Source: Candidatus Heimdallarchaeota archaeon (GTDB taxonomy: Archaea > Asgardarchaeota > Heimdallarchaeia > Heimdallarchaeales > Heimdallarchaeaceae). Taken from it: a stretch of 64,000 nucleotides of DNA. Under the pieces are notes generated by a model. That model saw only the letters and a program-made list of their open reading frames with translations, ran no database searches and was not told the origin of the DNA. The position numbers were made by a program, and so were the translations under genes. Position 1 is the first letter of the stretch. Each line of letters begins with the position of its first letter. Location: contig JAHLWR010000013.1 in NCBI GenBank assembly GCA_019057815.1, positions 53,873 to 117,872 of the forward strand. Direction: 5' to 3'. Of this stretch, positions 27,854 to 54,265 are shown piece by piece.

Positions 27854-29071
27854 GTGAACATGGATTACTCGGAATTTCTTGGAAGGAGGATCATCAATAT
27901 ATTATGTAATTATCCCACCGATTCTTTCAGGAATTTGGCTAAAAAGATTGATATGAGTACTAACAAGTTCATACGTATTTTTAACTCCTTAGTTAAAAAG
28001 AATATAATAAGAAAAGTAACAGCGGGTTACACACCTGAACTTCTTTCATTAACGCGATATCACGTAATTATTAATGTAATCAATTTGAATCAGTTTCATA
28101 AACTTCAAACAGCTTTCCGACAACACCCCTACACCCGGCAATACAATCACTTTTTTGGTGAACATTTCGGATGTTATGCAATATTTGATATCCCAAAGAA
28201 AGGGTATAATATAATCAAGAAATTTCTGGATTTTTTAGTTGATTCCGATTTTTGTGAAAATTATTTAATATATGAATCAAAGGGTTATAGATGTGAAACT
28301 CTTGAATATTTTTTCATATCAGATATAACAATACGCAATTTTGATATTACAAGCTTCTTCAATAAGCATTTAGATAAGTCTGATAAATTATCTTCATTAC
28401 CTGAACCATTAGGTTTAGACACCGTTACTCCACTACAATTGGTGTTGTTGCGTGATTTAGGTCGAAATATTCGAGTTTCTCAGATTAATTTAATTAAGAA
28501 TTATCGAAGTTTTGTAGAAACTCCACCAAACGTAGAAAACGATGATTATATTCCTCCTTCTTTTTTAGTTTATTTAGAAAGTTACTTTGCAAATAGAACA
28601 GACGATGCTATAAAAGTGGGTTTTAACCGTCAGTACAATTTTGTGAAAAAGAATCTAATTTATGCACCTCGATTGATTTTTGATAGAAAATATTACGATC
28701 TATATGTTTATAGATCATTTTTCATTGAAAATCTTTCAGATAAAAAAAGTGCACAATTTTTTAACTTAGTAAAAGAAGAAGATCCACCTCTTAAAATGAC
28801 AGTTGAGGTTCTTGAAAAGGGGATTGTTCTGAACTTCAAAATGCCACCTTTTTTTGATTCTAAGTTTAATTATCTTATCTGGTCCTTCTTTCCAGATTAC
28901 AAGATGTACACATTAGATTATTTTGGTAGAAGCGGAATATATTATCAGTTTTACATCGATAATTTTAATCCATATACGTCTAGTTGGAGGGTAGATGAAG
29001 ATTGGATGTTTAACAATGTTGTAGAAAATATAAAAGAAAAATTGGAAGAGAGCAATAACAGTCTTGTATAA
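27854..29071 (+). CDS. Double Lrp/AsnC-like (wHTH + ferredoxin-like RAM, twice) putative regulator, paralog 1
   Basis: N-terminal HTH (SFRNLAKKIDMS...LVKKNII), HPYTR..FFGE.FG.YA.F.IP, second HTH-like segment (TPLQLVLLRDL), C-terminal WRVDEDWMFNNVV. Confidence 0.75.
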   Translation: MNMDYSEFLGRRIINILCNYPTDSFRNLAKKIDMSTNKFIRIFNSLVKKNIIRKVTAGYTPELLSLTRYHVIINVINLNQFHKLQTAFRQHPYTRQYNHFFGEHFGCYAIFDIPKKGYNIIKKFLDFLVDSDFCENYLIYESKGYRCETLEYFFISDITIRNFDITSFFNKHLDKSDKLSSLPEPLGLDTVTPLQLVLLRDLGRNIRVSQINLIKNYRSFVETPPNVENDDYIPPSFLVYLESYFANRTDDAIKVGFNRQYNFVKKNLIYAPRLIFDRKYYDLYVYRSFFIENLSDKKSAQFFNLVKEEDPPLKMTVEVLEKGIVLNFKMPPFFDSKFNYLIWSFFPDYKMYTLDYFGRSGIYYQFYIDNFNPYTSSWRVDEDWMFNNVVENIKEKLEESNNSLV

Positions 29072-29261
29072 ATAATGATACATTTTTTTATTTCTCAAAT
29101 ATTGAATTTTCCTGAAATATTTTTCTATGGTATGAAATGATCCGTTTCATTTTTGCCGGTACCGACAATAATCATTTTTACCAAAAAGTTAATAATTGGG
29201 GAAGAAATGATTTTCTTAGTGATGATTTTTCATTCACTAAAAAACTAAGTAAAAATGAAGA

Positions 29262-29735
29262 GTGAATAAAATGAAAAATAGAAACATATTCTTGGCATTG
29301 GGATTTTTATTGGGTGTTATAATAATAGGAAATTCTGTAGCACAGGCAAATAGTTATGTGTTAGGGGTTAAAATAACAACAGCGTTTTATACAGACCTTG
29401 ATAACGATGGTTTTGAAGACGACATTTATGCAGAAGCATATTTAGCTTTTGATGATGTTGTGAAAGCCCGTATTTTGCTGATATATACGTTAACCTTACC
29501 TTCTGGCTACACATATCGAGATTATTACTATCACAAAATTACATCAGAGTTCATAACATATGAATTCCGCATCTATGAAGGTGCATTTGAGAGTGGAGAT
29601 TATATCTTCGATTTAGTATGTATCGTTCACAGTAATGGTGAGTTTCAAGTATATCAAGATACTTTGGTATTTGATCCTCCAGGTGGTGGTGCTGATGATG
29701 AACCACCGCATAGTATAGTTACTGTAGGACCATAA
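29262..29735 (+). CDS. Small secreted protein with a DxDxDG Ca-binding-like loop (probable start ATG 29271)
   Basis: Signal peptide ending AQA; DLDNDGFEDD; beta-rich; FDPPGGG near the C-terminus. Confidence 0.8.
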   Translation: MNKMKNRNIFLALGFLLGVIIIGNSVAQANSYVLGVKITTAFYTDLDNDGFEDDIYAEAYLAFDDVVKARILLIYTLTLPSGYTYRDYYYHKITSEFITYEFRIYEGAFESGDYIFDLVCIVHSNGEFQVYQDTLVFDPPGGGADDEPPHSIVTVGP

Positions 29736-29753
29736 CAAACGTCTGCTCTCATC

Positions 29754-30050
29754 ACGATTAGACAGAATCGTCTAATGAACACCCACAAAAAAGCAAATTA
29801 CCTCTAGGAGTATCGGGGGAAAAATATCCCTAGAGGGAATCTTGCTTCATCAAATAATGTTAATCAGAATCGTCTGATTAACACCCATCTAGGAGGAATC
29901 CAAGAGGTATTATGGGGTTATACTTTAGGATTTCTTTTGAAAATATAACGATTAGACAGAATCGTCTAATGAACACCCACCCAAGAAAGCGTTAGGGAAG
30001 CCCTCAGAGCAACATATGGAGGTTTCCCTAATGTCTAATAGGTGTTTGTT
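29754..30050 (+). repeat. Three-unit interspaced repeat array, putative structured ncRNA
   Basis: ACGATTAGACAGAATCGTCTAATGAACACCCAC is identical at 29754-29786 and 29948-29980, with a variant at 29856-29888. Each copy is followed by a sequence-unrelated long hairpin. Confidence 0.85.
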
Positions 30051-30081
30051 CGAAAAATTAAATATCTAAAAGGGGAAAAAA

Positions 30082-31293
30082 ATGGAAAGGTTAAACAATT
30101 TTGATATAAAAATTTTACACGCTCTCCAGAATCATCCACTGGAACCTAGTTCTAAAATTGCAAATTTAATTGGTACTTCTACTCAGACAATAATACGTCG
30201 AATCGAAAGGTTAACAGAACAAGGGATATTGCGAAATGCAATAGCTTCAATTATACCTGAACGTTTAGGGCTAGTTGAATATGCTGTGATAGTTTATGTA
30301 TCATCAATAGATCAGATGACTCTACTTCAAATGGCTTTCACAGATCATCCTTATACAAGATATTACAGTCGATTTTACGGAGAAAAATTCGGTTTCTATG
30401 CTACTTTTGAGATTCCTCCTGAGAGCAATGGACTATTAAGAAAGTTTCTTGATTACTTAGTTGAAAATGAATTCTGTAAAAGTTACACTCTCTTCCGTTC
30501 AGAGGGACATAGACTTGCTTTCCCTGATATAGTACCCAATTATACCTTAAATCCCAAATGTTTCAACATGATGGGTTACTGGGAAAAAAGGCTACAGAAA
30601 CCAAATAGGTTTCAAAGGCTAGCTTCAACACCAGATCTTTCAGAATTCACTCCCTTACACATGTTATTACTTCGTGAGATAACCACAAACCTTAGAACAA
30701 GTCAAGCAAATATAGTAAAAAAATTTAAGAACCAAACAAAAGGTGATAAAACGTCAGACCCAATTTTCCTACCTGATAATTATTTCAGCTACATGAAAGA
30801 ATTTCTTGAGAATAAGGCGGATAACACTATACGAAGGGAGTTTAATAAAATTTACAACTATCTAAAAGAAGGTTTTATTGACCGACATAGATGGAATATC
30901 AATAGAAAATTTACTGAAACATTTGTTTACCGAGCATTCATAATTAAAGATATACCTCAAGTAGAAAAGGCTCAATTATTCAATTTTTTTCTTGAAGAAC
31001 GCCCACCTTTTAGGTTGGGATGTACAGTTCTTTCAGATGGTATTTTTCTGACAGTGTCACTTCCACCCTATTACGATGCCAAATTCAGCTATCTAGTTTG
31101 GACAACTTTCGGGGAATATAAAATGTATTCTATGGATTTCTTTAGACATCATGGGCATCACTATTGGCTATATGTGGATAATTTTGATATTGCAAGAAAC
31201 AAATGGAAAGTCGATGAAGATTGGATGTTCAATAATGTTGTAGATAGTTTGAATCAAAGATTAAAAGAAGGCAGATTCACCAGCAATTACTGA
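30082..31293 (+). CDS. Double Lrp/AsnC-like putative regulator, paralog 2
   Basis: LNNFDIKILHALQ...IANLIGTSTQTIIRRIERLTEQGIL...IIPERLGL is a typical Lrp HTH; colinear with 27854..29071; ends WKVDEDWMFNNVV. Confidence 0.8.
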   Translation: MERLNNFDIKILHALQNHPLEPSSKIANLIGTSTQTIIRRIERLTEQGILRNAIASIIPERLGLVEYAVIVYVSSIDQMTLLQMAFTDHPYTRYYSRFYGEKFGFYATFEIPPESNGLLRKFLDYLVENEFCKSYTLFRSEGHRLAFPDIVPNYTLNPKCFNMMGYWEKRLQKPNRFQRLASTPDLSEFTPLHMLLLREITTNLRTSQANIVKKFKNQTKGDKTSDPIFLPDNYFSYMKEFLENKADNTIRREFNKIYNYLKEGFIDRHRWNINRKFTETFVYRAFIIKDIPQVEKAQLFNFFLEERPPFRLGCTVLSDGIFLTVSLPPYYDAKFSYLVWTTFGEYKMYSMDFFRHHGHHYWLYVDNFDIARNKWKVDEDWMFNNVVDSLNQRLKEGRFTSNY

Positions 31294-53500: not shown

Positions 53501-54265
53501 CTATATCCTGTATATAGTATTGTTCTTAAAAGGAATCCATTTCTCATTTCTTGTTAAAGGCACTGTTGCAATCACTATAGCTTTTTCCTCTACTGGTTTC
53601 ATTAATAACTCTACTTCTTTACTTTCTGATTTAATTGCTTCGGTATATGGTGGTTTTCTTTCCACATAATATAGTCTATTCCCTTTGCTATAAACATACA
53701 TTTTTTCTCCATCTGATAACAAGAAATTAAATGATCCATATTCCGCTATTCTTCCTGTTATTTCATTTAATTTATCTATTATTTCTCTATCTGTTGCTTT
53801 CTTTCCTAGTTTTCTCATCTCTTCCATTATTATACAAAATGCTAACTCTAAATCACTCTCATCTTTGGGTTGATAGCTTTCTAAGGAAGTTTGTAAGAAC
53901 CCTTTTTTCATGTCTTCTAACATTTTCTTTTTGTTTAAATGACCATTATGAGCAAAAATCCAATTCTTACTAAATAGCTCTCTCATAAATGGATGGGTAT
54001 TTTCTATTGTTTTTCTTCCTACTGAAGCATATCTTATATGTGAAATAAACATCTTTCCTTCAAACATCAGAGGATTGGTTATTATCTTTCCTACTTTCTC
54101 GCTTGTCATTGCCATAATTGGCTCTTTTTCAACTATCCATTTGTTCATACTATAATGTGCATATCCCCAACCTTGATAGTTTCTATTTGAGTGTTCTTTT
54201 AGAATCTTAAATGAGAAGGAGATGTTAGTTTCTTTATTACAGCTTACTCCAAGCAGTTCACACAT
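53501..54265 (-). CDS. Class II glutamine amidotransferase (YafJ-like Ntn hydrolase)
   Basis: MCELLG N-terminus, GWG, HIRYAS, NTHPF, FAHNG, IATVPLT. Confidence 0.92.
   Translation of the reverse strand: MCELLGVSCNKETNISFSFKILKEHSNRNYQGWGYAHYSMNKWIVEKEPIMAMTSEKVGKIITNPLMFEGKMFISHIRYASVGRKTIENTHPFMRELFSKNWIFAHNGHLNKKKMLEDMKKGFLQTSLESYQPKDESDLELAFCIIMEEMRKLGKKATDREIIDKLNEITGRIAEYGSFNFLLSDGEKMYVYSKGNRLYYVERKPPYTEAIKSESKEVELLMKPVEEKAIVIATVPLTRNEKWIPFKNNTIYRI

Follow-up and report, generated by a model that had tools for sequence, protein, structure and literature searches.

A genus-restricted, triplicated structured spacer in a precursor/double-Lrp gene cassette of Heimdallarchaeota

To our knowledge, very few structured regulatory RNAs have been described for Asgard archaea. 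The described systems closest to the element reported here are structured 5′ leaders and intercistronic attenuators, including the 'GC-rich IGR' (intergenic region) motifs, and, at the DNA level, the control region of Ss-LrpB, for which Peeters et al. are said to have described three spaced semi-palindromic boxes upstream of its own gene. The DNA analysed, referred to as the window, is a stretch of 64,000 nucleotides (nt) from a Candidatus Heimdallarchaeota archaeon (GenBank assembly GCA_019057815.1, contig JAHLWR010000013.1, forward-strand positions 53,873 to 117,872). Window positions 29751–30081 constitute the entire spacer that separates a gene encoding a secreted protein, p157, from the gene of a 403-residue protein, HTHdn. 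The element that fills this gap is a real and unusual structured spacer, restricted to one genus and tied to a cassette of peptide-precursor and double-Lrp genes. With a rough probability of 45%, we read it as a single fixed region, internally triplicated, GC-enriched and structured, that is putatively a cis-acting RNA of the plus strand, serving as a 3′ untranslated region (UTR), as a leader, or as both.

Anatomy and strand-specific folding of the element

Three copies of one repeat family, 33–36 nt in length and spaced at 102 and 92 nt (R1, R2 and R3), are each followed by a long hairpin unrelated in sequence to the other two (H1, H2 and H3). A preliminary description of the locus had reported the three repeats at these periods, a hairpin kept in the variant R2 and the three long stems, and it was confirmed in every checkable detail. 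The GC content of the element is 38.9%, compared with 25–29% in neighbouring intergenic DNA and 31% in the window. Six copies were compared: those of the window (contig C39) and of a second locus in the same genome (C9), one from another genome of the genus (a Heimdallarchaeota metagenome-assembled genome) and three from metagenome contigs. No conserved reading frame was found in the element. The copies differ by 1-nt insertions and deletions, which break the small open reading frames (MNTH..) beginning in R1 and R3, and these were rejected as coding candidates. The features of the element, from 5′ to 3′, are as follows.

29751–29786, plus strand: R1, consisting of ATCACG, the hairpin ATTAGAC-AGAATC-GTCTAAT (29757–29776) and single-stranded GAACACCCAC
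29791–29847, plus strand: long hairpin H1, ~20 pairs, with the loop CGGGGGAAAAAT (near-repeat form GGGGAAAAAT)
29853–29888, plus strand: R2, the variant repeat, 72% identical to the reference repeat, with CCCAT after its palindrome
29889–29941, plus strand: long hairpin H2 (stem 29891–29938), rich in G-U pairs, with GGGG in its loop
29945–29980, plus strand: R3, the same as R1 and 97% identical to the reference repeat, with a TATA-like A/T-rich run (29937–29950) on its 5′ side
29989–30034, plus strand: long hairpin H3, 14 + 3–5 pairs, several of them G-U
30041–30051, plus strand: GGTGTTTGTTC, the 3′ strand of a closing helix that pairs with the tail of R3 and closes unit 3 as a rod
30052–30081, plus strand: A/T-rich tail, GC 21%, with GAAAAATTAAATAT and with GGGG at 30072–30075, 7–10 nt before the ATG

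The plus strand of the element is predicted to fold with a minimum free energy (MFE) of −103.2 kcal/mol, compared with −69.1 ± 5 kcal/mol for shuffled sequences (z = −6.82; none of 100 shuffles was as stable), and H1, H2 and H3 all occur in both the MFE and the centroid folds. The stability of H1 and of the R hairpins is the same on either strand. In the window copy H2 is worth −16.6 kcal/mol on the plus strand versus −5.1 kcal/mol on the minus strand, and H3 −23.2 versus −14.2 kcal/mol, which bears out the earlier statement that stems 2 and 3 need G-U pairs on the plus strand. Over the six copies H2 ranges from −16 to −18 kcal/mol on the plus strand and from −5 to −11 kcal/mol on the minus strand. 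The plus-strand preference holds for H2 in every copy and for H3 in most, and amounts to 6–9 kcal/mol in nearly all. The stability of H2 is held although 19 of its 52 columns (37%) vary. Among the copies, H3 alternates between G-U and A-U at three pairs and is broken by A.C at one, and in the stems of the copies of this genus (g1) the cells comprise 48 G-U versus 11 A.C. The tail of R3 (GAACA..CACC, 29971–29981) is the 5′ strand of the closing helix, and its 9 bp with GGTG..TGTTC are present in all six copies, every pair being kept and one C-G having become U-G (RNAalifold); the complementarity of GGTGTT at 30041 to AACACC, pointed out in the preliminary description, is part of this helix.

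The 25–37 substitutions between copies leave the stability of the plus-strand fold unchanged, whereas the same changes placed at random cost ~15–17 kcal/mol. Random placements matched the stability of the real copies in 1–2 of 100 trials for three of five comparisons, and in 6 and 13 of 100 for the remaining two comparisons; on the minus strand this effect is less marked. Together, the G-U asymmetry and the fold-keeping substitutions favour the proposal, already made in the preliminary description, of an RNA read from the plus strand. The GGGG loops and the ACCC motifs are present and invariant in the copies. A pseudoknot between them was rejected because a linker of 5–8 nt within one unit would have to span a stem of ~20 bp, which is sterically unlikely.

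The short hairpin of R1 and R3 pairs ATTAGAC with GTCTAAT (7 bp) around a loop of 6 nt in the window copy, and of 6 or 7 nt depending on the copy. The palindrome of R2 is perfect, with 11 + 11 bp and a 4-nt loop, TGTTAATCAGA-ATCG-TCTGATTAACA (29858–29868/29873–29883). R1 and R2 differ at six positions, all of which lie inside the R2 palindrome and four of which lie inside the 7-bp palindrome of R1, and the two palindrome axes are offset by 2 nt. As the differences all fall in palindromes and the axis has shifted, each variant appears to be adapted to the hairpin that it forms. That R1 and R2 are both palindromic, in registers offset by 2 nt, suggests a requirement for a hairpin rather than for a single fixed half-site of a protein, and a loop of 6 or 7 nt would be poorly tolerated by a dimeric operator.

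These motifs also speak for a DNA control region, an explanation that we consider rather unlikely. R1, R2 and R3 would be boxes through which the neighbouring double-Lrp protein acts, either operators or upstream-activating sites (autoregulation by cooperative binding or wrapping), with R2 as the perfect central site and R3 overlapping the start of the regulator transcript, and the long hairpins would be terminators or passengers. The three boxes reported for Ss-LrpB count in its favour, as do the Lrp/AsnC-fold helix-turn-helix (HTH) proteins encoded by the flanking genes, spacings of 102 and 92 bp that are near whole helical turns, and the palindromic R motifs themselves, which are the most conserved parts of the element (8–11% of columns vary, versus 26–37% in H2 and H3). 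About the R2 axis, both halves of R1 match the R2 half-site at 7 of 9 positions. An A/T-rich run similar to the boxes ahead of this genome's tRNA genes precedes R3 and, less clearly, R2, and would place ATCGTC near a transcription start, as ATCGCC is placed in the sister genus g3 described below; however, R1 has no promoter-like run before it. An Lrp operator would also be expected to have one symmetry axis and fixed half-site spacing, whereas here the axis of R1 and R3 lies 2 nt from that of R2 and the inner spacer of R1 and R3 is 6 or 7 bp by copy. A fused pseudo-dimer with two unlike HTH halves, moreover, need not favour a palindrome. Finally, operator boxes leave unexplained the GC enrichment, the G-U-dependent plus-strand stems kept through 26–37% variable columns and the covarying helices of g3. 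The RNA and DNA readings are not exclusive, and R could serve at both levels.

The 3′ arm of H2 continues into the T-rich run TTTCTTTTG, which for an archaeon resembles a terminator. A short hairpin, ATGAAA..TTTCAT, with TTTTT after it, also occurs 3′ of the upstream paralogue HTHup (window 29125–29150); it suggests that terminators made of a hairpin and a T-run are used in this genome, and thereby bears on H2 and TTTCTTTTG as a possible terminator. The GAAAAATTAAATAT-type motif of the A/T-rich tail resembles A/T boxes upstream of the genome's tRNA genes and is near-invariant in the six copies. The GGGG at 30072–30075 could be either a Shine-Dalgarno (SD)-like site or a promoter component. That the tail holds a leaderless promoter seems less likely, as the box is 4–6 nt too near the conserved ATG and SD-like motifs are conserved. 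Output of a sigma-70 promoter and terminator scan was set aside because the host is an archaeon.

Copies within the genus and counterparts in other genera

The order of H1, H2 and H3 is identical in all six copies, which share 90–94% identity, and every copy sits between a gene for a secreted protein of ~155 residues and a gene for a fused double-Lrp protein of ~405 residues. The C9 copy comprises R1-H1-R2-H2-R3-H3-tail, is 90.7% identical to the window copy over 333 nt, and lies between a p157 homologue and a gene for a protein of ~410 residues. A pattern search of the host's own 3.7-Mb assembly returned six repeat matches at two loci (C39 and C9) and no further match. Dispersed repeats such as miniature inverted-repeat transposable elements (MITEs) or repetitive extragenic palindromes (REPs) were rejected for the same reason, the two loci having the same gene context, in keeping with the earlier expectation that the repeat would not be scattered over the genome. 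Exact-pattern scans of genome, metagenome and viral collections found the real element on four contigs only, all of them g1-like; the other exact matches were single, in unrelated bacteria, and were taken as chance. The C9 copy adjoins gatD/gatE in an ordinary chromosomal context; the element therefore does not belong to the giant-gene region beside the window copy, and a link to that neighbouring (aloposon-like) element was rejected. In four public DNA sequencing runs the contigs break at R1 or R3, and one joins 29764 to 29959 (R1 to R3) and omits 194 nt. Because R1 and R3 share an identical stretch longer than 31 nt, the join is probably a k-mer collapse in assembly; the alternative is a natural one-unit allele generated by recombination between R1 and R3.

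The preliminary description had taken the hairpins for variable cargo on a constant handle, possibly a guide, and found that the array fitted neither clustered regularly interspaced short palindromic repeats (CRISPR) nor a known RNA family. The second point stands and the first does not. Set and order of the hairpins are unchanged in the six copies, at 90–94% identity, which excludes a turnover of cargo like that of CRISPR spacers. A CRISPR array was rejected on the count of just three repeats, with R2 72% identical to R1, and on intervening segments that are 56–66 nt long, self-complementary and the same three in all copies; no cas genes were found among the neighbours within ~4 kb at the window locus or at C9, the rest of the genome not having been scanned for cas. 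A search of Rfam 15 with the window element (E-value threshold 10) gave best E values of 0.49–8, all far below gathering, and nothing was found at E ≤ 0.05 for the C9 copy or for the counterparts in genera g3, g4 and g5. Other identities were rejected as well. A type III toxin-antitoxin system (ToxI-like) is at odds with repeats separated by unlike hairpins and with a downstream gene of Lrp/AsnC fold, not endoribonuclease. For archaeal C/D and H/ACA small RNAs there were only sub-threshold matches to snoRNA families, the stems are near-continuous without pockets, and no RUGAUGA box was seen on reading. Integron attC sites, retrons and TnpB omega-RNAs have no matching neighbouring gene here.

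It is quite unlikely, in our estimate, that the units act in trans as tandem small RNAs of ~60–100 nt, each an R handle with its hairpin, cut out or separately transcribed from the A/T-rich runs before R2 and R3. They would serve as decoys or sponges with G-rich loops that imitate a ribosome-binding site, or the cassette would have them as its RNA output. The modular build, with a constant motif heading each unit, would suit such RNAs, and unit 1 scores weakly against a covariance model of unit 3 (E 1e-4 to 2e-2). Promoter-like A/T runs precede R2 and R3, and T-rich runs follow H2 and H3; R1, however, lacks such a run. The H1 loop CGGGGGAAAAAT is similar to GGGGAAAAAA ahead of the start codon, of which its form GGGGAAAAAT is a near-repeat, and in g3 GAGGTC occurs both as a loop motif and as the ribosome-binding motif of several of the genes. 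Nonetheless, the rest of the genome yielded no complementary target, so that the proposed guide function is not supported, and the fixed content argues against an adaptive or guide array. There are three units at two loci only, and no nuclease or RNA-binding gene lies nearby.

Conservation is uneven along the element. Variable columns number 4 of 37 in R1 (five copies), 3 of 37 in R3 and 6 of 57 in H1, the last being identical in the window and C9 copies. The paralogous copies of the window and C9 diverge by 9%, a figure close to that between orthologues, while the flanking proteins of the two loci are 43–53% identical and the downstream proteins, at 43%, are not sisters in the tree. The identity of the two loci begins exactly at ATCACG and drops to ~64% past the start codon. 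Paralogous loci as similar as orthologues despite such diverged proteins indicate that the 330-bp block was recently copied or converted from one locus to the other, apparently shortly before these genomes split. Such a transfer between paralogous loci of long standing is a good example of concerted evolution in a non-coding regulatory element.

The copying is also compatible with an explanation to which we give little credence, namely that the element has no specific function and is palindrome-rich filler, built by local duplication and spread between paralogous loci by gene conversion, with hairpins that are by-products of inverted duplications or plain terminators. The transfer between loci whose proteins are 43–53% identical and not sisters fits this view, as do the restriction to one genus, the divergence of orthologues at the pace of their flanks and the lack of compensatory pairs in g1. 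Filler does not account, however, for the sharp boundaries that both loci show at ATCACG and the start codon, the GC enrichment, substitutions that avoid destabilising the fold, or six R1/R2 differences that each serve one or the other palindrome, and the same gap in the sister genus holds a constrained, covarying element.

In this sister genus, g3, the gap is 330–390 nt long and starts with ATCACG soon past the stop codon, as R1 does. ATCACG is followed by ATCGCCAGAAA(A)CCCCACCCC(C), where g1 has ATCGTCTAATGAACACCCAC, and the gap contains the invariant segments CAAGGGGTCAAACC and TTAGAGGTCTA. A covariance model was built from two sequences and a hand-drawn structure (closing helix, three-way junction and extra hairpins), and all 16 g3 loci could be aligned to it. 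In this alignment, which is fitted to its own covariance model, 92.1% of cells are paired versus 82.2% in shuffles, and slid controls give 42–58%. The covariation score is 0.204 versus 0.082 for shuffled alignments, none of 500 shuffles reaching it; 11 pairs have changed on both sides, including five of the six pairs of helix P4, and G-U outnumbers A.C by 30 to 17. This 5′ core is single-copy in 18 of the 25 g3 genomes searched, with each match that was checked lying just upstream of the orthologous type-I double-Lrp gene, and was not found in other genera. The g3 loci (L094–L110 and L116; e.g. L094:2872–3066, minus strand) thus carry a candidate new RNA motif, with a core of ~170–200 nt and no Rfam match, made up of the closing helix CCCCUU/AAGGGG, a three-way junction, P4 with the loop GAGGUC, and invariant CAAGGGGUCAAACC and UUAGAGGUCUA. 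A covarying element in the same gap argues that this gap is a home for structured RNA. The g1 and g3 elements have in common their position, the 5′ ATCACG, the motif ATCG[TC]C..A-rich..ACCC and a similar 3′ tail; they are positional counterparts, and common descent is plausible.

Genus g5 has a single unit in the matching place: CTGAC-ATAAATC-GTCAG, then AAAAGACC and one long hairpin. Its CTGAC/GTCAG stem corresponds to the R hairpin, two of whose pairs have changed in a compensatory way. In g4 (L108 and L109, complete Heimdallarchaeum-type genomes) the gap holds, ~190 nt before the gene, AACTCCTTAGG..CCTAAGGAGTT and the long-range pair TTTCTTTCTGA..TCAGAAAGAAA, yet another structured spacer, which suggests that each genus has its own version. 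The unit-3 covariance model found g1 only, and three marginal matches elsewhere (E 0.008–0.03) were taken as chance.

The position beside one gene family is fixed across genomes, as expected of a cis-regulatory RNA. Several observations nevertheless weigh against a cis-acting plus-strand RNA. Taken as a whole, the region of the window copy folds equally well on the minus strand. The predicted fold leaves the ribosome-binding region unsequestered, with no simple switch visible. The best-conserved parts, the palindromic R motifs and the A/T-rich tail, would suit DNA sites as well. Compensatory pairs within g1 are 0 of 89 in the six copies, which at 90–94% identity give a covariation test no power, and varying stem positions keep their pairing in about half of the cases and break it in about half. 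Orthologous copies of the element are 90–94% identical, compared with 91–97% for their flanks over comparable lengths, so that constraint on the element within the genus appears moderate at best. The g3 covariance model has no match to the g1 element, and profile hidden Markov models of the two show no cross-match.

The gene cassette and a proposed mode of action

The genes of the cassette in the window are as follows.

27854–29071, plus strand: HTHup, the upstream paralogue, 405 residues, of the same fold family as HTHdn and not preceded by a copy of the element
29262–29735, plus strand: p157, the upstream gene, with the likely start ATG at 29271, encoding a secreted protein of ~154 residues (154–157 by start)
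30082–31293, plus strand: HTHdn, the downstream gene, encoding a 403-residue fused double Lrp/AsnC-like protein, HTH-RAM-HTH-RAM

The ~405-residue proteins are fused double Lrp/AsnC proteins of the order HTH-RAM-HTH-RAM (AlphaFold2 model, pLDDT 92.6), as the preliminary description had supposed for the flanking ~400-residue genes. The top Foldseek match is NirDL (4ch7), a siroheme decarboxylase, followed by ordinary Lrp/AsnC regulators. The same description had placed the element between two paralogous genes; HTHdn does lie directly downstream, but HTHup is one gene further off, with p157 intervening. The fused double-Lrp family occurs in 49 of the 61 relatives searched, with several paralogues per genome. 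A 'type-I' clade in the tree unites HTHdn, the pair of HTHup and the double-Lrp protein of C9, and one orthologue per g3 genome. The neighbours within ~4 kb of the element are ParA/MinD, double-Lrp, p157, GcvH and TPR genes in the window, and GatD/GatE and NosD-like genes at C9. A third pair of p157-type and double-Lrp genes, 'type II' (C27:79347–81066, minus strand, in the host's own genome; also L112–L114), has only a plain spacer of ~45 nt, which indicates that the structured element is an add-on of the type-I clade and is not required by the gene pair.

The p157 protein has a signal peptide, a DxDxDG-like motif and the conserved C-terminal tail FDPPGG..DEPP, and searches of Pfam and NCBIfam gave no match. 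Homologues lie upstream of double-Lrp genes in other genera and have a common C-terminal tail, FDPPGG..DEP(I/P)GG. In g3 the corresponding precursor is reduced to 75–121 residues, made up of a signal peptide and 3–5 exact tandem cores of the DEPIG type (e.g. PVEDEPIGF.PGGA.), encoded by the upstream reading frames at loci L096, L098, L099, L103, L104 and L106. The g3 gene resembles a peptide precursor of the polyprotein kind, with a ligand-binding regulator as its partner. On the analogy of known signalling systems, the element might be the RNA component of an unrecognised archaeal peptide-signalling cassette, in which the precursor, with a single FDPPGG..DEPIGG tail in g1 and 3–5 tandem DEPIG-type cores in g3, would yield a peptide sensed by the RAM domains and the modules would be a regulated RNA output or a protein-binding hub, an idea that we regard as a long shot.

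Under the preferred reading, the spacer would be a cis-acting RNA divided between two genes: H1 and H2 would lie in the 3′ UTR of the precursor gene, and unit 3 would serve the regulator as its leader. Transcription begun at the precursor gene would run into units 1 and 2, where the long hairpins and the U-rich run after H2 would stop or trim most transcripts and stabilise their 3′ ends. Unit 3, in which the R3 tail closes on GGUGUUUGUUC around H3, would form a rod-like leader of ~110 nt before an unpaired A-rich ribosome-binding region. The spacer would in this way set the level of the regulator relative to the precursor, possibly adjusted by a bound factor, for which the R motif (a short hairpin with single-stranded ACACCCAY) would be the recognition handle. 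The preliminary description had offered a tandem regulatory leader for the gene at 30082 as one possibility; a leader remains the best class of explanation, but the tandem array of variable units is not supported.

Apart from the cassette, two 16S rRNA 3′ ends in the host's own genome (contig C23, minus strand, ~28.6 kb and 43.2 kb from the far end of the contig) have ~31 extra bases between CCTGCGG and GGATCACCTCCT, at a site where most archaea have CT. The insertion contains a small hairpin, ATACAT..ATGTAT, and the anti-SD sequence is standard.

Comparison with known systems

A long GC-rich folded spacer, tied to one cassette that is widespread in the Heimdall group and with real helix covariation in the sister genus, can be set beside several described systems. 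If the spacer controls the regulator, it offers a way into the wiring of these little-understood regulators with their secreted partners; an RNA output, if that is what it is, would hint at signalling by peptides in the archaea most closely related to eukaryotes. CRISPR arrays share with it direct repeats of ~33–36 nt that have some hairpin potential, alternate with unlike segments and lack a coding frame. Here, in contrast, the repeats number three, one of them at 72%, and the 'spacers' are hairpins of 56–66 nt that are the same in every locus and strain. Like the Csr/Rsm sponge RNAs, the element has hairpins that present a G-rich loop resembling the sequence before a start codon (GGGGAAAAA here; GAGGTC in g3). 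The likeness is confined to a short motif, no more than two or three loops of this kind exist here, and we know of no CsrA-like protein in archaea. The aimX RNA of the phage arbitrium system and RNAIII of agr offer an analogy in layout only, as a non-coding structured element beside a secreted-precursor gene and the gene of a cytoplasmic regulator. The proteins are unrelated, being of Lrp fold here and not TPR proteins or response regulators, and peptide signalling and RNA output are hypothetical in the present case.

The control region of Ss-LrpB resembles the element in having three spaced semi-palindromic boxes before a gene of Lrp fold, with a middle box that differs from the others. The boxes of the element are, however, 92–102 bp apart rather than ~4 helical turns, and are separated by conserved long hairpins. 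The axis shifts between boxes, the inner spacing varies by 1 bp, and the regulator, a putative binder here, is a fused double-Lrp protein. With respect to structured 5′ leaders and intercistronic attenuators, the element differs in that it has no identifiable ligand, switch, SD-sequestering helix or Rfam match, and consists of three modules of repeat and hairpin with a genus-specific sequence and putative transcription. Nonetheless, it is like them in being GC-enriched, non-coding, strongly folding and fixed before one gene family, and its g3 counterpart shares with such leaders a multi-helix junction and covarying helices.

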